45,674 bases of DNA from Oscillospiraceae bacterium. GTDB taxonomy: Bacteria > Bacillota > Clostridia > Oscillospirales > CAG-272. Made by a program: the position numbers and the translations under genes. The stretch lies in the NCBI GenBank assembly GCA_015064065.1, contig SVSY01000003.1:1-45674 (forward strand). Direction: 5' to 3'. Below the pieces are notes generated by a model. The model saw only the letters and a list, made by a program, of their open reading frames with translations. It was not told the origin of the DNA and did no database searches. Within the stretch, counting starts at the first letter, position 1, and the number at the start of each line of letters is the position of its first letter. Below are positions 28,564 through 41,331 of this stretch, piece by piece.

Positions 28564-28782
28564 GCGTAGTGTCCTTAAGGACACTACGCAACTAAGTTTG
28601 CCCTTGGGGCAAGTGAAGTTTACTTCGTAAGTGAAGTTATCCTGCGGATAGTGAAGTTTTGCCTTCGGCAAAGTGGGCAAACTTAACTTCACTCGTGCGA
28701 TAGCACGAACTTCACTGCAAAGCAACTTCACTTTCGCGTAAGCGAAAACTTCACTACATTTGCATTTGTGACCACAAATGCA
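28564..28782. repeat. Composite palindromic repeat element A (AGTGAAGTT x3 / AACTTCACT x4 with mini-hairpin spacers)
   Basis: Directly visible; see findings. Confidence 0.85.
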
Positions 28783-30981: not shown

Positions 30982-31010
30982 TTGACAACGGCGAAAAATA
31001 GTGATATAAT
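30982..31010 (+). promoter_or_regulatory. Sigma-A promoter of the opp operon
   Basis: TTGACA-N17-TATAAT with TG. Leaves a leader of about 175 nt. Confidence 0.85.
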
Positions 31011-31190
31011 TGTTCCGTACGTTAGTATGGCGAACTGTATATTTGATAGAAAAGTAAATGGGGGGACCCCCATTTATGCTATGCACCTGCGGTGCATAGC
31101 ATAATATCACTGTCTGCTTTTCTTTGAAAATACGGTTTACAGCGGCGTATAGTACCATATCAAATTTAAAAATTTAAGGAGGCTTTTAAA

Positions 31191-33359
31191 ATGAGCAAAA
31201 AGGTACTTTCCATGTTGCTCGTTCTCTGCATGGTATTCGCATCTGTTGCAGCTCTCGCTTCTTGTTCTGAGAAGGAAGAAGAAGGCGCTAACAACGATAG
31301 AGTTGTAAATTATGCCGATCCTTACAAGGGAATTGAGGACAAAGAGGAACTCTACGCAAAAATCTATGAAGACACTCTCGGCGATTTCTTGAAGGCTTAC
31401 GAGGCTGCAAAGGCTGAGAAAAACGAGTCCAAGAAGTGGGCTATGATGGCAATTGCAGAGGCTAAGCTTCTCGCAAGTGGCGTTATGATGCCTACCAGCT
31501 CCAACGGCGGTAACTACGCTATCACCAGAGTAGCACCTAACACCGCTACTTCTACTCTTTGGGGCAACGACTCCTACAGATATCACGATGTAATCGTTGC
31601 TACCGAGCTTATTAAGGCTGAAGACAGAGCAGCTCTTAAGGCTAAGTGGGCAGAGCTTAAGGGAACCGGCGAATATGAGGCAGCAGCTAAGGCTTACCTC
31701 ACTGAGAAGGGTTACACTCTTAAGGATTCTTACACCCTCGCTTACACTTCCGACCCCTCTAACTGGGACGTTCTCGCTACCTCTAAGGCAGTTGACTCCG
31801 AGGCACTCGTAAATACCTATGACGGTCTTTATGAGTACGATATGGAGAACAGACTTATGCCTGCTCTTGCTGAGAGCTACACCGTTTCTGAGGACGGTCT
31901 CACCTATACATTCAAGATCCGTCAGGGTCTTAAGTGGGTTGACTCTCAGGGAAGAGAAGTTGCAGACGTTAAGGCTGACGACTTCGTTGCAGGTATGCAG
32001 CACATGATGGACGCTGCAGGCGGACTTGAGTATCTCGTTCAGGGCGTTATCAAGGGCGCTAACGACTACATCGGAAAGAAAGAGACCGACTTCACTAAGG
32101 TTGGTGTTGCCGCTCCCGACGATGCTACCCTCGTTTACACTCTCGAGGCTCCCGTTACTTACTTCATGACCATGCTTGGCTACGGCGTATTCGCTCCTAT
32201 GAGCAGAGAGTACTACGAGTCCAAGGGTGGTAAGTTTGGTGCAGCTTATGACTCTTCTGCAGAGTCCTACACCTACGCTAAGACTCCCGACGATATCGCA
32301 TACTGCGGACCTTACTGCATTACCAACAATACCGCTAAGAATACTATCGTATTCGAAGCTAACGAGAAGTATTGGGATGCAGAGAACATCAACGTTAAGA
32401 CCATCACTTGGAAGTACAACGACGGCGAAGAGGCTCTCAAGGGCTACAACGACGCTATCGCAGGTACTACCGACGGTTCCGGCCTCAACGCTTCTGCTGT
32501 TGTAAAGGCTAAGGAAGACAAGATCTTCGACACCTACTCCTACGTTTCTTCTACTGACGCTACTTCGTTTATGTCTTTCGTAAACGTTAACCGTGCAGCA
32601 TACGCAAACGTACAGGGCGGCGCTGTTAAGACTACTCTCGACGAGTACGAGCAGATCAGATCCAGAGCAGCTCTCAGAAACGTACACTTCCGCCGCGCTA
32701 TCGCATTCGCGATCGACAGAGGTTCTTACAATGCACAGTCTGTTGGCGAAGACCTCAAGTTCGCTTCTCTTATCAACTCCTACACACCCGGTACTTTCGT
32801 AACCCTTAAGGAAGACGTTACCGTTGCTATCAACGGAACCAACAAGACCTATAAGGCAGGTACCTACTACGGAGCTATTATGCAGGATCAGCTCGACGCT
32901 GACGGCGTAAAGATGAAGGTTTGGGATCCTAAGGCTGACGACGGAATCGGCGCAAGCTCCGGTTTCGATGGTTGGTACAATGTTGCTAACGCAGTTGAAG
33001 AGCTCAACATCGCTATCGAAGAGCTCGCAAAGCAGGGAATCGAGATAACCGCTGAGAATCCCATCGTTATCGAGATGCCTTACTTCAAGGGCAGCGAACT
33101 CAGAACCAATATGTCTAACGTTTACAAGCAGTCCATCGAGGCTTCTCTCGGCGGAAAGGTTAAGCTTAACCTCTGCGCAGCTGACACTGCAGACGATTGG
33201 TACTATGCCGGCTACGACACACTTTCCGGTGAAGAGGCTAACTACGACCTCTACGACGTTTCCGGTTGGGGACCTGACTACGGTGATCCTCAGACATACC
33301 TTGATACATTCTTGCCCGAATATGCAGGCTATATGGTCAAGTGCATCGGTATTTATTAA
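31191..33359 (+). CDS. oppA: Oligopeptide ABC substrate-binding lipoprotein (family 5, AmiA/AliA-like), apparently circularly permuted
   Basis: Lipobox LASC, PALAESYTVSEDGLTYTFKIR, DFVAG, YCGPY, FRRAIAFAIDR and GWGPDYGDP. Strong codon bias. Confidence 0.9.
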   Translation: MSKKVLSMLLVLCMVFASVAALASCSEKEEEGANNDRVVNYADPYKGIEDKEELYAKIYEDTLGDFLKAYEAAKAEKNESKKWAMMAIAEAKLLASGVMMPTSSNGGNYAITRVAPNTATSTLWGNDSYRYHDVIVATELIKAEDRAALKAKWAELKGTGEYEAAAKAYLTEKGYTLKDSYTLAYTSDPSNWDVLATSKAVDSEALVNTYDGLYEYDMENRLMPALAESYTVSEDGLTYTFKIRQGLKWVDSQGREVADVKADDFVAGMQHMMDAAGGLEYLVQGVIKGANDYIGKKETDFTKVGVAAPDDATLVYTLEAPVTYFMTMLGYGVFAPMSREYYESKGGKFGAAYDSSAESYTYAKTPDDIAYCGPYCITNNTAKNTIVFEANEKYWDAENINVKTITWKYNDGEEALKGYNDAIAGTTDGSGLNASAVVKAKEDKIFDTYSYVSSTDATSFMSFVNVNRAAYANVQGGAVKTTLDEYEQIRSRAALRNVHFRRAIAFAIDRGSYNAQSVGEDLKFASLINSYTPGTFVTLKEDVTVAINGTNKTYKAGTYYGAIMQDQLDADGVKMKVWDPKADDGIGASSGFDGWYNVANAVEELNIAIEELAKQGIEITAENPIVIEMPYFKGSELRTNMSNVYKQSIEASLGGKVKLNLCAADTADDWYYAGYDTLSGEEANYDLYDVSGWGPDYGDPQTYLDTFLPEYAGYMVKCIGIY

Positions 33360-33393
33360 TAAGTGCCTAACGCTTGAATAAATAAAGCTTACG

Positions 33394-33423
33394 GTAGAGG
33401 ATGGACTTACGTTCATCCTCTAC
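33394..33423 (+). other. Intercistronic hairpin oppA/oppB (mRNA stabiliser or partial terminator)
   Basis: GTAGAGGATGGAC-TTAC-GTTCATCCTCTAC with no U tract. Confidence 0.55.
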
Positions 33424-33445
33424 TCGTAGTTTAATGGAGATTGTT

Positions 33446-35023
33446 ATGACAAAATATTTATTGAGTAGAATCGTAAGAGGATTGATTTCAATAATTATAG
33501 TTGTTCTCATTGTCATGCTTCTTATATATTCCTGCTTAAACAAGGACATGATATTTGCACAGGACCCCACGTATACCAAGATGAAGAGTAACGCGAGAGA
33601 AATATACAAATATCGTCAGTGGGAGAGATATGGATATCTCGACCTCGTAGAGTATTCGGATTATCTTCAGGAATTGCTTGATGCTGGTGAAATAGACCAG
33701 ACTACCTATTCGGAAGCTGTTCTTCTCGGTATAGATGCAGGTGCAGCATACCCTGAGTATGACAAGTACGTGCAGCAGTTTACTGAAAAGTATGAAAGCG
33801 AAGGCTATAACATAGAAAAATTGCAGGCTGACAGAGCGGGCAGCAAGATAAAAGACGGAGGAAATCCGCAGCTCTTTGCTCAGAAGCCTATACCTCTTGC
33901 AAAGCGTGCCTGGACTTATTTCACGGGCATATTTACCTTTGACAATATTCACAAGGTAAAAGAGGACGTTGGAGAAAGAGGACTTTCCTTTACCTTCTTC
34001 GATCCTGCATATGGCGGAGAAAAGTTTTCTCCTGCAATAATGGGAAATGGAACGCAGCATAAATATCTGCTTTATTTCGATTCGCAGTTCCCATACGTTC
34101 ACCAGAATTTTGTAAGAATAAATCTGGGAGCATCCTACACTGTCAATAAAGGTATTGACGTGTTTAATACGATGACGGATTCGCAAGGTGCGTTTAAAAC
34201 TCAAATGATCACTTATCCCGCGGGACTAACAGAGGAAAGTGCGGATAATCTTCATACCGCCGTTTATGCGGAAGGATCCTTTAACGATTCGTCATCTGCT
34301 ATCATCAAAGACAGATTTGTTGATAATTATACCAACGTAGGAACCTATAAGAGCGGTTTCTCTAAGGTTGGATACTCCTTTATTATCGGTATCATCTCGG
34401 TAATAATGGCTTACGTTATAGCACTTCCTCTCGGAATGCTTATGGCGCGTAAGAAGGACAAGCTTATCGACAATCTCGGAACTATCTATATCGTATTTAT
34501 TATAGCAGTTCCGTCACTTGCGTACATCTTCTTGTTCAAGGCGATAGGAGGAAAGTTCGGATTACCGACGACCTTCGATATGACCGCACCGACGTGGACG
34601 ATGTACATTCTCCCGATTATTTCTTTGGCGTTGCCATCGATCGCAAACCTTATGAAATGGTTGCGTAGATATATGATCGACCAGATGAACTCCGACTACG
34701 TTAAGTTCGCACGTTCGGGCGGACTTTCGGAGGGCGAGATATTCAGAAAGCATATTCTGAAGAATGCGGCAATTCCGATAGTTCACGGAATTCCCGGAAG
34801 TGTGCTTGGCTCTCTCGTCGGTGCTATTATTACAGAGCGCGTTTACGTCGTTCCCGGTGCAGGTAACCTGCTTACAAACGCAATAAATGCGTATGATAAC
34901 GGTGTTATCGTCGGTGTAACTCTGTTCTATGCGTTGCTCTCGGTTGTTTCCGTAATGCTCGGAGATATCCTTATGTCTATAGTCGATCCCAGAATCTCGT
35001 TCAGTACTAAGAAAGGAAGGTAA
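33446..35023 (+). CDS. oppB: Oligopeptide ABC permease (AmiC-like, large extracytoplasmic domain)
   Basis: KYLLSRI, SDYVKFARSGGLSE (EAA loop), KHILKNA and DPRI. Confidence 0.9.
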   Translation: MTKYLLSRIVRGLISIIIVVLIVMLLIYSCLNKDMIFAQDPTYTKMKSNAREIYKYRQWERYGYLDLVEYSDYLQELLDAGEIDQTTYSEAVLLGIDAGAAYPEYDKYVQQFTEKYESEGYNIEKLQADRAGSKIKDGGNPQLFAQKPIPLAKRAWTYFTGIFTFDNIHKVKEDVGERGLSFTFFDPAYGGEKFSPAIMGNGTQHKYLLYFDSQFPYVHQNFVRINLGASYTVNKGIDVFNTMTDSQGAFKTQMITYPAGLTEESADNLHTAVYAEGSFNDSSSAIIKDRFVDNYTNVGTYKSGFSKVGYSFIIGIISVIMAYVIALPLGMLMARKKDKLIDNLGTIYIVFIIAVPSLAYIFLFKAIGGKFGLPTTFDMTAPTWTMYILPIISLALPSIANLMKWLRRYMIDQMNSDYVKFARSGGLSEGEIFRKHILKNAAIPIVHGIPGSVLGSLVGAIITERVYVVPGAGNLLTNAINAYDNGVIVGVTLFYALLSVVSVMLGDILMSIVDPRISFSTKKGR

Positions 35024-35028
35024 GACTC

Positions 35029-36018
35029 ATGGAAGAGAAATTGATAGATCTCGGCGAATTTAATATGTCTGATGATGAGCTTTTCTCGGTCGTTGATCAT
35101 GATATGCTTGCCTCTGAAAAAATAACTGCTCCGAGATATTCCTATTGGAAATCGGTTTTCCGTGTCTTCTTCAAGAAGAAGATAAATATAATCATTCTTT
35201 CACTTCTCGTAGTTCTTATTGCCTTTGCGTATATTTATCCGTTGGCAATAGGATACGATGCTGACGTTGATCCCTATATAAACCTTATGAACTCCGAGGC
35301 GAAGCACTTGGGTCCTAAGGCGGCGATGGATAAGTTCGGATATAATCTCCACTGGATACTCGGTTCGGGTGCCAGCGGTAACTCCACCTTCGACGCACTG
35401 TGGTACGGTTCGGGAATTTCTCTCTCGCTTGCACTTATATGCGCGGCTATCAATATGACGGTCGGTATATTAGTCGGCGCGGTTTGGGGATTCTCTAAAA
35501 AGGTCGATATTTTTATGACCGAGGTCTACAACGTCATAGCAAACGTTCCTTACATTCTCTTGATATCGGTGCTCGTGCTTATTATGTCGGCAAGCTTTTG
35601 GACGATGGTATTTGCACTTACCGTTACGGGATGGCTTGGAATTGCGTACTTTATTCGTACACAGGTAATTATTATAAGAGACAGAGAGTATAATCTCGCT
35701 TCGAGATGTCTCGGAACGCCTATTATGCGTATCGCGACTAAGAATATTCTCCCTTTTATGACCTCTGTAATAGTTACACTTCTTGCAACCGAGATACCTT
35801 CTTACATTTCCTATGAAGTATTCCTTTCCTACATTGGAATGGGTCTTTCGGATATGTCTCTCGGTAAGCTTATCGAAGCTGCACAGGTTGCGATGACAAC
35901 TCCCGGTTGGGAACTTGAATTCTGGGCACCCGTTGCAGTTGCTTCTATTATCGCAGTAGTTCTTTACGTCGTAGGACAGAATCTCGGTGACGCTTCCGAC
36001 CCGAGAACTCATATGTAA
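35029..36018 (+). CDS. oppC: Oligopeptide ABC permease
   Basis: YSYWKSVFR, REYNLASRCLG, FLSYIGMG and LGDASDPR. Confidence 0.9.
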   Translation: MEEKLIDLGEFNMSDDELFSVVDHDMLASEKITAPRYSYWKSVFRVFFKKKINIIILSLLVVLIAFAYIYPLAIGYDADVDPYINLMNSEAKHLGPKAAMDKFGYNLHWILGSGASGNSTFDALWYGSGISLSLALICAAINMTVGILVGAVWGFSKKVDIFMTEVYNVIANVPYILLISVLVLIMSASFWTMVFALTVTGWLGIAYFIRTQVIIIRDREYNLASRCLGTPIMRIATKNILPFMTSVIVTLLATEIPSYISYEVFLSYIGMGLSDMSLGKLIEAAQVAMTTPGWELEFWAPVAVASIIAVVLYVVGQNLGDASDPRTHM

Positions 36019-36030
36019 GAGGTGGCGAAA

Positions 36031-37779
36031 ATGGAAGATAAGAAGATATTACTGTCGGTCAGAAACCTTAGCGTTAAGTTCCGTGTAAGAGGAAGAATAC
36101 TTACCGCTATAAGAAACGTTTCTCTTGACCTTTATGAAAATGAATCGATCGCTATCGTTGGTGAGTCGGGTTCGGGTAAATCGGTATTTACCAAGACCTT
36201 TGCGGGTATGCTGGAAACCAACGGCTTTATCAGCGAAGGACAACTTATCTACAACGACGAAGAGCTTGACGATACCGTTGTTGCTATCGGTCCTTCCGAA
36301 AAACGCCGTATAGCGTCGATATGGAAGAAGCTTGACGATTATTCCAAACTTGAGGGCGGAGCAGAGATCTATAAGAAGATCGTCGCTCTCAAAGATGAGA
36401 ATAAGGCAAGATTTATTCTTAGTGAAGAAGAAAGCTTGAGAATTGATGATAAGCTCCACGAGCTTGTATTTAAGAAGACCGAGTTTTCCAACCTCAAGCA
36501 GACTCTCGATCGTTCTCAGGAAAAAGAACGCTTTGAGAGTGTTAAAACACAAATAGAGGAGCTTTCAGCGCAGATCGCGGCTCTTGAAAAAGAGAAAAAG
36601 GAGCTTGTTGCAAAGCATACCGCTGCGGCAAAGCAGGATAAAGCGTATAATGACAATTACAATGCTACGTTCGCACAGCTTTCAGCAGATTACAAGGTCG
36701 CTGTTTCCAAGGAGATAACGAGCGAAGTACACGAGCGCAACGGAATTCTTGCTAAGGAAATATATCTCTCTGTCGGTCGCTATGATCTCAATAAGAGACT
36801 TAAGTTTATTGGCAAGCTTTGTGATGCGCTTAAGGAAGCTATGCGTCAAGGACTTGATCTTAATGACGAGGACGTACGTAATGCTGTGTTTGATACGGTA
36901 GTATTCAGAGTAAAATATCTTGATGAAACTCCCGAACAGCTTCACGGCGTCTGCATACTCGACCTTGCAAAGATCCACTATCCTAAGGACTGGAACAAGA
37001 TCCGCGGCGGAAGAATTGCTACGGTATTCCAGGACCCGATGACCTCGCTTAACCCTATCATCACTATAGGTAAGCAGATCACCTCTATAATTCTTAAGCA
37101 CCAGAATTGCTCTGAGATCGAGGCTCGAAAGAGAGCTCTCGAGCTTATGAAGAAGGTTGGTATTCCTAACGCTGAAAACAGATTTGACGATTATCCTTTT
37201 CAGTACTCGGGCGGTATGAGACAGAGAATAGTTATCGCTATCGCACTCTCTTGCCAGCCGAAGATATTGATCTGCGACGAGCCTACTACTGCGCTTGACG
37301 TTACCATTCAGGCACAGATACTTAAGCTTATCAAGGATCTTCAGAAGGAATTCAATTATACCATCGTCTTTATCACACACGACCTTGGCGTAGTTGCAAA
37401 TATCGCAGACCGTGTTGCAGTTTTGTATGCGGGACAGATAGTTGAGCTCGGAACGGTAGAAGAGGTATTCTACGATCCTCGCCATCCGTACACGTGGGCG
37501 CTTCTTTCGTCGCTCCCTCAGCTTGCACAGCGTAATACTAAGCTTTACTCTATCTCCGGTACTCCGCCTTCTCTCTACAACGCGATCGTAGGAGATGCGT
37601 TTGCACCGAGAAATCCCCATTGCCTCAAGATCGATACGCTCAAGGAACCTCCGATGTTCCGCGTTACCGATACTCACTATGCAAAGACGTGGTTGCTTGA
37701 TCCCAGAGCTCCCAAGATAGAAAAGCCTGAGATCATTGAAGATATCCACGAGAAATTGCTTAAAACATTTAACATTTAA
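36031..37779 (+). CDS. oppD: Oligopeptide ABC ATPase with large helical insertion
   Basis: [34 protein letters not shown] and HPYT. About 230 extra aa after Walker A. Confidence 0.92.
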
Positions 37780-37792
37780 GGAGGGCGTTACT

Positions 37793-39121
37793 TTGGCTAA
37801 GACTGAAAAGAATACTAAGAACGAGCGCCGCTCCAAGCTTTTACCTGAACATGGACCTATCGACGCACAGGGCAGAGAGGTGCTCCTCTCGCTCAAAAAC
37901 GTTGATATCACCTTTGGTAAGGGCGACAATGCAGTAAGAGCTGTAAAAAATGCAAGCTTTGATATCTACAAGGGAGAGACTTTCTCGCTTGTTGGAGAAT
38001 CGGGCTCGGGTAAAACCACAATCGGACGTGCGGTTATCCGCGTTAACCCTTGTGCAGCAGGTGAAATACAGTACAAGGGTAAGAAGATATCAGGTAAGCT
38101 CTCAAGAGCACTCGATAAAGAGGTCATTCGAAATATCCAGATGATATTCCAGGACCCCGCCGCTTCTCTTAACGAGCGTGCAACGGTAGATTATATCGTT
38201 TCCGAGGGACTTTACAACTTCCACCTTTTTGAGAACGAGGCGGACAGAGTTGCAAAGGTAGAAAAGATGATGGAAGAGGTCGGACTTCTTCCCGAGCACC
38301 TTACGCGTTATCCTCACGAATTTTCAGGCGGGCAGAGACAGAGAATAGGTATCGCAAGAGCAATGGTAATGGAGCCTGAGCTTGTAGTTGCGGACGAGCC
38401 TATCTCTGCACTCGACGTTTCAATTCGTGCGCAGGTGCTCAATCTTCTCAAAAAGTTCCAGAAGGAAAGACAGGTAACCTATCTCTTTATTGCACACGAC
38501 CTTTCGATAGTAAGATTTATTTCGGATAGAATAGGCGTTATCTATAAGGGCGATATCGTCGAGGTGGCTGAAGCAGAAGAACTCTTCAACTATCCGCTTC
38601 ATCCCTACACGCGTTCGCTTATTTCGGCTATTCCGATTCCCGATCCTAAGCTTGAAAAGAACAAAGTCCTCTTTACCTACGATCCTACCGTTCACGACTA
38701 CAGCGTGAATAAGCCTCAGCTTGCCGATATCGGAAACGATCACTACGTTTTCGGTAACGAGGAAGAGCTTGCGGAGTATCGCAGAATAAGAGAGAGCGGA
38801 GTTCCGCTTAAGTCTATTACTATTGCAGATCCTTCTGATGTCAAGACCGAGACGGTAGGAACAGAGCCTGATACAGAGTCTGTTGAGACCGAGAGCAATG
38901 AGTTTGCGCTTGTTAATCCGATACACGATACCGGAAGCAAGCTTTACACGTTCCTCTCCTTCCTTCTCCCCGTACTTGGACTTCCTGCGTCCTTTATATT
39001 CAAGCACTATAAGCACTTGAAAAATGCAAAGGCTTGCTTGAAGGGTGCGATAGCAGGATTTTCAACGCTCGGAGCAATATTGGTAATATTCCTGTTGCTT
39101 ATACTTATAGCACTTATATGA
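37793..39121 (+). CDS. oppF: Oligopeptide ABC ATPase with C-terminal membrane hairpin
   Basis: [33 protein letters not shown] and HPYT. TTG start behind AAGGAGG; hydrophobic tail. Confidence 0.92.
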
Positions 39122-39184
39122 CCTTAAAATACCGCATGGCTCGTACTCGGGTCATGCGGTAGAAAAAATTTTGGGGGTATGTAG

Positions 39185-40429
39185 ATGAGTCTTTTCAAAA
39201 AGAAAAAGGACATAGAAGAAATTGAACTTTCCGAGAAGCACGTCGGTTTGCGATGGACTCTTGTTGCCGTATTTTTGGCAGTCGGACTTATTTGCATAGC
39301 CGTATTTTTGTTTTCTCTTCTCGGTGAAGAGGAGGGCTGGCAGACTATCGCGCCGACCGATAAAAGCTTTATGCCCGAAGGCGAGATATCACTTCAATAT
39401 AATCTTGGAACTACGGAAATTTCACCTTCCAAAGAGAAAAAGGAAGTAGAAAAGGTATATACCGAGGCGCTTTCTGCATCTTATAAGCTTTTTGACGTCT
39501 ACCGAGCATACGACGGAATAGTTAACCTACACTATATAAATCAACATCCCAATGAAGAATTGACGGTCGATCGCGAGCTTTATAAAGCGTTTGAGCTTAT
39601 TGAAAGTTTTAATAACCGTTCGATATATCTCGGCACGGTACTGACTGAGTATAGAAAGGTCTTTAGTTCGACGGACGATCTTAGCGCAGAGTTGGGTGAT
39701 CCGAATTTTAATGAAGAAGCTAAGCACTATATTGAAGAGCTGACAAGGTTTACAGGTGACCCGAATTCAATTAATATCGAGCTCTTGGGTGATAATAAGA
39801 TAAAATTGAATGTTTCCGCTGATTATGCCGCGCTTTTTGTTGAGTACGATGAGGTCAATTATATAGATCTTGCGTGGCTTACTAACGCATTCGTCGTTGA
39901 CGGAGTCGCAAATGCGCTCGCGGCGAGAGGATATACGAACGGTTACGTTATTTCCTATGAGGGATACGTCAGATATCTTGACTCGGCAAATAACAGATAT
40001 TCGTTAAATCTTAATAACAGACAGGAAAAAACGGTATATCCCGCGGGAGTTGCGCATTGTGAGAATATCCGCTCGCTCGTACAGTTCAGAAATTACCCGA
40101 TAAACGAGATCAATAGCCAGAACTATTACGCATATTCAAACGGAACTTTTGCAACGCGTCATCTTAATTCTGACGGATATTACGTCAGCGCGCTGAATGA
40201 TATACTCGCTTATTCGAGCTCAAAAAATTGTGCACAGATAGCACTTGAACTCTCTGAAATATTTATTCAGGAGGACCTTGATTTAGACCGTATAATGCAA
40301 AACTCAAATGAGGATATATATACTATATGGTTTGAGGATAGTGTTATTTATTACAACGACAAAAATCTACAAATAAGCGAAATATATGATAATAATGGAA
40401 TAAAATACACTATAAATTGTGTTGAATAA
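39185..40429 (+). CDS. Membrane-anchored ApbE (FAD:protein FMN transferase)-like protein, divergent
   Basis: N-terminal TM. FDVY..NLHYIN..VDRELY, IDLAWLTNAFVVD..L..RG and GYVISYEG follow the ApbE layout. Confidence 0.6.
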   Translation: MSLFKKKKDIEEIELSEKHVGLRWTLVAVFLAVGLICIAVFLFSLLGEEEGWQTIAPTDKSFMPEGEISLQYNLGTTEISPSKEKKEVEKVYTEALSASYKLFDVYRAYDGIVNLHYINQHPNEELTVDRELYKAFELIESFNNRSIYLGTVLTEYRKVFSSTDDLSAELGDPNFNEEAKHYIEELTRFTGDPNSINIELLGDNKIKLNVSADYAALFVEYDEVNYIDLAWLTNAFVVDGVANALAARGYTNGYVISYEGYVRYLDSANNRYSLNLNNRQEKTVYPAGVAHCENIRSLVQFRNYPINEINSQNYYAYSNGTFATRHLNSDGYYVSALNDILAYSSSKNCAQIALELSEIFIQEDLDLDRIMQNSNEDIYTIWFEDSVIYYNDKNLQISEIYDNNGIKYTINCVE

Positions 40430-40432
40430 TAC

Positions 40433-40466
40433 AATAGCCGCTCGCGAATGCGAGCGGCTGTTTTTG
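40433..40466. terminator. Terminator between convergent genes
   Basis: AATAGCCGCTCGC-GAAT-GCGAGCGGCTGTTTTT. Confidence 0.8.
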
Positions 40467-40491
40467 TGACGTTTATTTCTATTTAAAAGGG

Positions 40492-41256: not shown

Positions 41257-41331
41257 TGGCTGGGATGGCCGGATTTGAACCGACGAGTGCCAGAGTCAAA
41301 GTCTGGTGCCTTACCGCTTGGCGACATCCCA
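41257..41331 (-). tRNA. tRNA-Gln(TTG)
   Basis: TGGGATGTCGCCAAGCGGTAAGGCACCAGACTTTGACTCTGGCACTCGTCGGTTCAAATCCGGCCATCCCAGCCA folds as a cloverleaf with anticodon TTG and encoded CCA. Promoter TTGACA-N17-TATAAT at 41349..41377. Confidence 0.97.

Follow-up and report, generated by a model that had tools for sequence, protein, structure and literature searches.

We analyzed a window that comprises the whole of contig SVSY01000003.1 (C36; 45,674 nucleotides, or 45.7 kb) of an Oscillospiraceae bacterium, whose genome assembly (GCA_015064065.1) amounts to 2.07 Mb in 136 contigs and is 82% complete. Between positions 31191 and 40429 of this window lie six + strand open reading frames (ORFs) with short spacers, namely oppA, oppB, oppC, oppD, oppF and a sixth gene that is here called G6, in agreement with a preliminary description of the region as six co-oriented genes. 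We regard it as probable, though far from assured, that the locus is an operon for an oligopeptide importer of the Ami/Opp type, and that G6 is an outward-facing, non-flavinylating accessory protein that binds a ligand or partner or else conditions the substrate. The importer appears to be a distinct and recurrent lineage that is widespread in gut Clostridia and that combines an Ami-like binding protein and permease with a Mycoplasma-like OppD. To this extent, the distinct transporter subtype that had been proposed is borne out.

The first five genes encode what characterizes importers of the Opp/Dpp/Ami type: a family-5 substrate-binding protein, two permeases with the BPD_transp_1 domain (one of them also with OppC_N), two ATPases with an oligo_HPY region, and an Asp that anchors the peptide N-terminus. 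When the six proteins were compared to the whole genome using tblastn (E threshold 1e-8), this locus alone was found. The standard genetic code fits the window, and reading TGA as Trp adds spurious frames only.

To judge from the sequence, the six genes are almost certainly co-transcribed as one operon; a search for RNA data sets that cover positions 37800–40440 gave no match. The preliminary description placed them behind one strong promoter, and a TTGACA-17-TATAAT sequence with an upstream TG (positions 30982–31010, + strand), approximately 180 nucleotides (nt) 5′ of oppA, does agree with the consensus at 12 of 12 positions. However, a promoter scan of the window found 22 sites, compared with 19.0 expected from shuffled sequence, so that there is overall no excess over chance. 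Because the total is near the shuffled expectation, we count the site at 30982–31010 solely as the best-placed consensus match. The oppA leader of approximately 180 nt that follows it (31011–31190, + strand) has two hairpin-forming stretches, one at approximately 31055–31076 and the other just after it. This leader matched no Rfam family, and could be a regulatory leader. As previously described, hairpins within the operon lack U tracts. A 10-bp hairpin in the oppA-oppB gap (33397–33420, + strand; z −5.3) has no adjacent U run, and a 14-bp hairpin in the 63-nt oppF-G6 spacer (39130–39161, + strand; z −6.4) is followed by A6 and U4, which does not make a canonical terminator. The first clear terminator is a 13-bp, G+C-rich hairpin (40433–40462) followed by TTTTT (40433–40467 in all, + strand; z −4.8).

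Subunits of the importer

OppA (31191–33359, + strand; 722 aa) is a lipoprotein of the SBP_bac_5 family (PF00496; E 9e-43), and the Cys of its LASC lipobox (C25) is nearly invariant among 21 OppA sequences. Its nearest solved relatives are AliB, AliC, AliD and AmiA (E 7e-71 using the single sequence and 5e-110 using a profile). The single-sequence alignment to AliB falls into two parts: OppA residues 176–715 match AliB residues 4–496, and OppA residues 66–159 match AliB residues 518–612. More generally, OppA residues 176–721 match Ali residues 4–506. A profile of the N-terminal part, i.e., residues 26–172 of the protein in the window and the equivalent part of 20 relatives, retrieved exactly four distinct matches among PDB sequences at E ≤ 0.01. 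These were AliB, AliD, AliC and AmiA, and in all four the match was to Ali-type C-terminal residues 501–623 (E 1e-8 to 7.5e-6). The same segment also matches positions 761–887 of the 896-position Mycoplasma OppA model NF043077 (E 3e-5), and nothing else in Pfam or NCBIfam matches it. Because the N-terminal part corresponds to the Ali C-terminus and the rest to Ali residues 4–506, we consider it confirmed, at the level of alignment, that the chain order of OppA is a circular permutation of that in pneumococcal AmiA/Ali and in the Mycoplasma OppA model, as the preliminary description had suspected. OppA starts where these proteins end, and its own end at residue 722 corresponds approximately to Ali residue 506.

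The C-terminal region of Ali proteins contains the final portion of domain I together with the hallmark helix α19 (PMC11192437). Given the permutation, the lipid-modified Cys of OppA would be tethered beside the segment that resembles this region, and not beside the first strand of domain I. The permuted protein also retains a WGPD motif, in which W693, P695 and D696 are invariant in the 21 sequences. This motif aligns with the GWGPD motif of Ali proteins, whose Asp (D501) binds the N-terminus of the bound peptide (PMC11192437). Because WGPD is invariant and the nearest solved relatives bind oligopeptides, the comparison points to ordinary oligopeptides as the cargo of OppA, and it gives no support to the non-standard cargo that had been envisaged.

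Some additional observations concern oppA itself. The codons TTA, CTA and TCA occur 0 times among its 722 codons, and the corresponding counts in other genes of the window range from 0 to 11. This codon bias may be a sign of high oppA expression. It is also the reason for the existence of a 759-aa frame antisense to oppA (31137–33416, − strand), which has no Pfam match and which we rejected as a gene, regarding it as a shadow of the codon bias. Between certain near-identical operons among the related loci discussed below (L039 and L052; L068 and L073), OppA has diverged to a much greater extent than the proteins encoded next to it. For the pair L039–L052, dN is 0.235 for OppA versus 0.005–0.014 for OppB, OppC, OppD and OppF. 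Since dN of OppA is so far above that of the adjoining genes, these pairs suggest that the binding-protein gene has been swapped by recombination. Finally, the genome encodes a second, distant family-5 solute-binding protein (contig C54, 9934–11103; open frame of 665 aa), whose similarity to OppA falls below the tblastn threshold of E 1e-8.

The permease gene oppB (33446–35023, + strand) belongs to an ORF that is open from position 33401, and its likely start is the ATG at 33446, which stands behind GGAG. OppB has a hydrophobic N-terminal helix and a BPD_transp_1 core that begins at ORF residue 341; the intervening stretch of approximately 270 residues makes up an external domain. This large domain was correctly recognized in the preliminary description, but it does not serve as a distinguishing trait, because such a domain is normal for Ami systems. 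For example, AmiC has 498 aa, of which residues 31–278 contain ECD1 and ECD2, for which a role in clamping the loaded binding protein has been proposed (PMC11192437). The external segment of OppB is strongly conserved, with 61 invariant columns in 22 sequences, and a search limited to this region found 1741 proteins that share it, while no Pfam or NCBIfam family matches it. AlphaFold gave a mean pLDDT of 56 for the external domain; its model is good for the first 126 residues only, and residues 127–273 score under 50. A wide fold search using this model gave a best Z of 2.8, but because the model is poor, this result has no bearing on the novelty of the fold. The second permease, OppC (35029–36018, + strand), matches OppC_N in addition to BPD_transp_1. 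It reads GSGASGNSTFDALWYG at a position where canonical OppC proteins have GTDxxGRD; among 71 relatives, this segment shows partial conservation.

Both ATPases contain ABC_tran (PF00005) and oligo_HPY (PF08352). In OppD (36022–37779, + strand), ABC_tran is matched in two stretches, the second of which begins at residue 320, and an insertion of approximately 230 aa lies between Walker A and the Q loop (approximately residues 90–320, or positions 36290–36980). The insertion is helix-rich, coiled-coil-like and poorly conserved, and its Pfam and NCBIfam matches are to sub-threshold coiled-coil families only. Although this previously noted insertion is present, its novelty is not upheld. OppD residues 10–581 align in a single stretch with positions 1–557 of the 561-position Mycoplasma OppD model NF043079 (722.5 bits), and because this alignment runs from end to end, the insertion appears to be a shared feature that has already been catalogued.

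The likely start of oppF (37793–39121, + strand) is a TTG codon at 37793 behind AAGGAGG, within an ORF that is open from 37736. Its C-terminal tail (approximately 38912 to 39118) has, in this order, a conserved HDTGS motif and two hydrophobic segments that are separated by a basic loop (FKH..RN.KAC.KGA). The membrane tail that was earlier attributed to OppF is therefore found here, and the related OppF proteins all have it as well (73 of 73). Neither Pfam nor NCBIfam has a family that matches it, and the match to the Mycoplasma OppF model stops at ORF residue 348, ahead of the tail.

Distribution of G6 and the importer across genomes

We searched for G6 in 200 other genomes of the same order, and found strong matches in 5 genomes, which belong to five different families. 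None of the 10 genomes in this sample that belong to the window's own family had a strong match. G6 is directly after oppF in all 5 genomes, and a query consisting of the OppD insertion alone found exactly the same 5 of the 200. A wider survey, in which each species was represented by one genome, gave 373 candidate stretches. A G6 relative is encoded in 286 of them, and the best 80 were examined. These 80 loci are mostly from Lachnospiraceae and Oscillospiraceae from gut samples, and include loci of Roseburia inulinivorans DSM 16841 and Lachnospiraceae bacterium A4.

The gene order is oppABCDF-G6 in 58 of the 80 loci and oppBCDF-G6-oppA in 3. Most other loci are cut by a contig end, and show oppDF-G6 (5 loci), oppF-G6 (4), oppBCDF-G6 (3), oppCDF-G6 (3) or G6-oppA (2). 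In the remaining 2 loci, G6 is alone, with 148 and 8 nt of upstream sequence. The variant in which G6 lies between oppF and oppA is represented by L031, L044, L063, L067 and L076. Wherever at least 1400 nt are available upstream, oppF is immediately 5′ of G6 (73 of 73 loci), and no locus among the 80 contradicts this arrangement, so the linkage that had been suggested for the ApbE-like gene is tight. The oppF-G6 spacer has a median length of approximately 22 nt, and is at most 35 nt in 44 of the 73 loci and more than 200 nt in 6; these lengths are approximate, since G6 starts were extrapolated from alignments. Because of its strict placement within the operon, G6 is probably tied functionally to the transporter.

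We also scored 398 other genomes in a class-level sample (2 more were not scorable). The OppD insertion is present in 4 of the 398, and of the three new genomes among these, one has G6 and two, which are species of one genus, do not. In the latter two, genes for permuted OppA, inserted OppD and tailed OppF are present; downstream of them come a terminator and a gene in the opposite orientation, and there is no remnant of G6. Thus, the co-occurrence of traits that the preliminary description anticipated holds for the OppD insertion and G6 in the order-level sample, but it does not extend to this genus. Over the order and class samples, 6 of 8 distinct genomes that have this operon type, not counting the window's own, have G6. 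Since one genus keeps the remodelled operon without G6, we take G6 to be a dispensable accessory that is not obligatory for the transporter. A separate observation on this genus is that a 564-aa + strand ORF lies directly 5′ of oppA in both species (L098 862–2556; L099 863–2557).

To place the operons relative to each other, we used an unrooted tree of OppC, OppD and OppF with 69 rows, which was made using a quick method. The two operons that lack G6 are on a long branch (0.41) within a 19-row side of the tree (SH-aLRT 99), and operons with G6 occur on both sides of this split. The simplest reading would be that G6 was lost once, in the G6-less genus, although an unrooted tree also allows a single gain. 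Rows from Lachnospiraceae and Oscillospiraceae are interleaved on the tree. Because of this interleaving and the absence of the operon from the sample of the window's own family, the distribution suggests that the whole operon has spread laterally.

The strict gene linkage, including the 5 loci where G6 lies between oppF and oppA, might also be expected if G6 were a structural partner or assembly factor (a chaperone or a sixth subunit in its own right) that bound no small ligand and docked on the OppB domain, the permuted OppA or the OppF tail. A conserved cytoplasmic motif (ELSEKH..R) ahead of the G6 membrane helix is compatible with such a role, as is the co-occurrence of G6 with membrane-tailed OppF. 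However, all three of these proposed docking sites are retained without change in operons that lack G6. Moreover, conservation in G6 is centred on the old ligand cleft of its fold (see below), and there is no obvious conserved surface patch. We therefore view a purely structural role as unlikely. A predicted complex of the OppB external domain with G6 residues 48–414 neither supports nor opposes contact between them (ipSAE 0.00 in both runs, where the mark is 0.32).

Fold, ancestry and possible role of G6

G6 (39185–40429, + strand; 414 aa) has a membrane helix at approximately residues 22–46, followed by a domain with the ApbE/Ftp fold (residues 48–412). Because a basic N-terminus precedes the helix, the positive-inside rule implies that this domain faces outward. 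Searches by sequence gave few names. No Pfam or NCBIfam family matches G6 at E ≤ 0.01, and the Pfam ApbE family (PF02424) does not score. A word-indexed search found 41 homologues without names, one of which has a source name, "hypothetical protein", in an Oscillospiraceae genome. The ESM Atlas has 27 clusters without names, and the nearest named one is ApbE at 0.86. There was no match in a plasmid collection, and searches of PDB sequences using the single sequence or the profile gave only chance-level rows, such as the ApbE protein TM1553 at E 0.4. Nonetheless, G6 belongs to a large family of approximately 1000 clusters at 50% identity: with a profile as the query, 1120 representatives were retrieved at E ≤ 0.001, of which 997 remain at E ≤ 1e-10 and 697 at E ≤ 1e-30. 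The best 150 representatives mostly have 385–455 aa, and four are longer, up to 534 aa.

The predicted structure of G6 is more informative. An AlphaFold model based on 37 sequences (mean pLDDT 91.5) has an N-terminal helix at residues 17–46 and then a mixed α/β domain. All 39 Foldseek matches to this model at E ≤ 0.001 are ApbE, Ftp or FmnB proteins (best E 4e-12, TM 0.74 by the target, 12–13% identity). In a comparison using VIA, 306 of 330 residues were aligned with Ftp of T. pallidum (4ifu; Z 25.9, rmsd 3.1 Å), whereas the next unrelated fold reached Z ≤ 10.9. Similarly, hhalign aligned G6 with five true ApbE sequences over 342 columns (probability 98.7%, E 2.6e-15), and the G6 profile catches true ApbE genes in other genomes (E 2e-6 to 4.5e-4), two of four of which were confirmed by PF02424. 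The full ApbE/Ftp fold in the model, together with these alignments, indicates that G6 descends from the flavin transferase ApbE.

The motifs of ApbE are, however, replaced in the G6 family, so the preliminary description of a membrane-anchored, degenerate ApbE was apt. In the hhalign alignment, conserved motifs specific to the G6 family stand in their place: NAF for AKGY, SSYDGF for GGN, V.LR.Y for TSGxYxR and CAE for ADxxST, whereas the HHIxDP position is occupied by a variable stretch. Conserved catalytic residues of ApbE are Ser241, His257 and Asp285 in Vibrio cholerae numbering (PMC12052999). At these positions, which we placed within the ApbE motifs by spacing, G6 has F, R and Q, and the residues vary across the family. 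The flavinylation motif D-x-x-[ST]-G-A-[ST] is found neither in the six proteins nor in any of the six frames of the window, and a regular ApbE is encoded elsewhere in the genome, on contig C65. Because the catalytic residues are lost, no flavinylation motif is nearby and a normal ApbE is available, the flavin-related role that was previously raised is unlikely, and G6 is almost certainly not a flavin transferase.

It is important to consider whether G6 could still be an enzyme of flavin or nucleotide metabolism, e.g., a divergent flavin transferase or an FAD pyrophosphatase, that is in the opp operon for surface co-expression only. Such an enzyme would explain why the full fold is retained and why the columns of the ApbE motifs are those conserved in G6, which implies that the cleft is still under selection, and many pocket residues vary even among true ApbE enzymes (PMC12052999). 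It would not explain why all three catalytic residues have been replaced by residues that are variable within the family, or why Pfam ApbE fails to score. It also fits poorly with the missing target motif, the normal ApbE elsewhere, and the linkage of G6 to oppF instead of redox genes. We consider this explanation improbable.

In a relative (L009, 208–1275), a 355-aa lipoprotein with two internal repeats and no Pfam match is encoded beside a true ApbE and RnfC, and may be a flavinylation target. We also entertained a link to the enterococcal cAD1 pheromone precursor, but dropped it: Cad is an ApbE substrate encoded beside apbE, and Opp goes unmentioned in the relevant part of that study (PMC7074142).

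Among 37 G6 sequences, C349, R145, R263, D172, D239, S257 and several Tyr residues are invariant, and the ELSEKH..R motif that precedes the membrane helix is conserved. The conserved columns coincide with those of the ApbE motifs, i.e., with the old cleft, and because of this location they suggest that G6 has acquired a new ligand or new chemistry rather than serving as a mere scaffold. In 13 non-overlapping pairs, dN/dS of G6 is 0.05–0.20, and that of OppB, OppC, OppD and OppF is 0.01–0.10, where one OppD value was set aside as an artefact of a contig end. These ratios indicate that G6 is under purifying selection.

New chemistry could mean that G6 is a surface hydrolase or processing enzyme that trims or releases peptides or conjugates for OppA. 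The invariant C349, which is at the place of the catalytic Asp motif of ApbE, would be a candidate for its active site. Moreover, G6 probably faces outward beside a peptide importer, and its dispensability in one genus is what would be expected of a helper that widens the range of substrates. However, this idea is based solely on the conservation pattern. Similarity to a hydrolase family was not found, all fold matches above Z 11 were to ApbE proteins, and no invariant His is available to complete a Cys-His pair. We consider this idea improbable.

Our preferred explanation, in which G6 is a non-flavinylating accessory of the importer, is best appreciated as a sequence of proposed steps. Lipid-anchored OppA would capture peptides, OppB and OppC would form the channel, and OppD and OppF would hydrolyze ATP. 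The OppB external domain probably clamps loaded OppA, as was proposed for AmiC. G6, anchored in the membrane and facing outward, appears to have lost the chemistry of flavin transfer and to have kept a conserved cleft that is chemically different. Its gene is inherited, and almost certainly transcribed, together with the transporter genes. Most likely, G6 assists the importer on the outside of the membrane, without being essential to it, by binding a ligand or partner or by conditioning the substrate.

Several observations weigh against this explanation. The strong hairpin in the oppF-G6 spacer of the window could reduce read-through into G6. The genomes of both G6-less species are 100% complete and carry the remodelled oppABCDF with no G6 anywhere. 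The evolutionary rate of G6 is two to six times that of OppB, OppC, OppD and OppF, and its identity to relatives is 30–49%, versus 63–86% for these subunits. Additionally, residues of G6 were mapped to ApbE using a profile alignment at 17% identity, in which local shifts are possible. In this regard, the absence of the ApbE motifs throughout the consensus of the G6 family is more robust than the mapping of individual residues.

In a bolder form of the accessory explanation, the importer would have G6 as a sixth component proper. G6 would be a surface module derived from ApbE but without catalytic activity, and its remodelled cleft would take up or gate cargo of a particular class before passing it on to the permuted OppA or the OppB domain. 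The OppA permutation, by which the lipid anchor is shifted to the opposite end of the fold, and the OppF tail would then belong to the same re-engineering at the membrane. We find this doubtful, but if it is true, G6 would be the first flavin-transferase scaffold recruited into an ABC importer.

Peptide uptake is central both to the nutrition of gut Clostridia and to their signalling via imported peptides, and the operon type occurs in cultured and studied commensals, namely the Roseburia and Lachnospiraceae strains named above. The importer also poses structural questions: how docking is affected by a binding protein that is permuted and differently anchored, why an importer ATPase bears a membrane tail, and what function an inactive ApbE fold has next to a transporter. 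With approximately 1000 clusters and no Pfam or NCBIfam model, the G6 family deserves a family definition and a correct name.

The genes that flank the operon have no relation to peptide transport. On the upstream side is a gene for an AI-2E family transporter, and on the 3′ side there are a small ORF, a tRNA gene (41260–41331, − strand; Rfam score 61.6 bits) and a gene for a protein with the metallo-beta-lactamase fold. Approximately 2.5 kb 5′ of the operon, positions 28589–28662 (+ strand) match the Rfam Gut-1 RNA with 53.2 bits, where the gathering threshold is 50.

Comparison with known systems

In a literature search whose coverage did not extend to subscription journals and supplements, no paper was found that describes opp operons with an ApbE-like gene, circular permutation of OppA or the insertion in OppD. 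The traits of the operon for which this search gave no description are the permuted OppA, the OppF tail and the ApbE-derived sixth gene.

The operon resembles the Ami system (AmiACDEF with AliA–AliD) in several respects. Both have a lipoprotein of family 5 with more than 620 aa as the binding protein, and those of the Ami system are the nearest solved relatives of OppA, which contains the Ali-type C-terminal helix segment. Both also have a large first permease with an external domain of approximately 250–270 aa, although the resemblance to AmiC residues 31–278 (PMC11192437) is one of size and position only. In addition, the two ATPases with an oligo_HPY region and the peptide-anchoring WGPD motif are kept. 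On the other hand, Ali domain I starts N-terminally and helix α19 is C-terminal, an order that OppA does not fit, and the lipid anchor of OppA is beside the counterpart of the last approximately 120 Ali residues. OppD has its 230-aa insertion and OppF its membrane tail, whereas AmiE and AmiF have approximately 355 and 308 aa and are not known to have such an insertion or tail. Finally, the sixth, ApbE-like gene is a difference from Ami.

The Opp system of Mollicutes, represented by MMSYN1_0165–0169 of Mycoplasma mycoides and the models NF043077–NF043081, provides the best NCBIfam matches for all five subunits. All five scores are under the curated cut-offs, namely those for OppD (722.5 versus 740), OppC (318.8 versus 370), OppF (461.9 versus 800), OppB (190.2 versus 350) and OppA (104.3 versus 650). 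The long OppD insertion within the ATPase domain is common to both systems. However, the Mollicutes OppA model is not permuted, and the match to the OppF model, which has 649 positions, ends ahead of the tail. We know of no counterpart of G6 in Mollicutes Opp systems, although no search was made for one.

The proteins that G6 most resembles are ApbE, Ftp and FmnB (PF02424). The two-domain fold is common to them over 306 residues, the N-terminal helix-loop segment is similar (YKLFD...G..N..Y.N), and these proteins are, as G6 probably is, extracytoplasmic and attached to the membrane. They differ in that G6 has no Pfam hit, and in that a membrane helix takes the place of the ApbE lipobox. Their genetic contexts differ as well: ApbE proteins occur in the context of Rnf/Nqr or other flavoproteins, whereas the context of G6 is a peptide importer.

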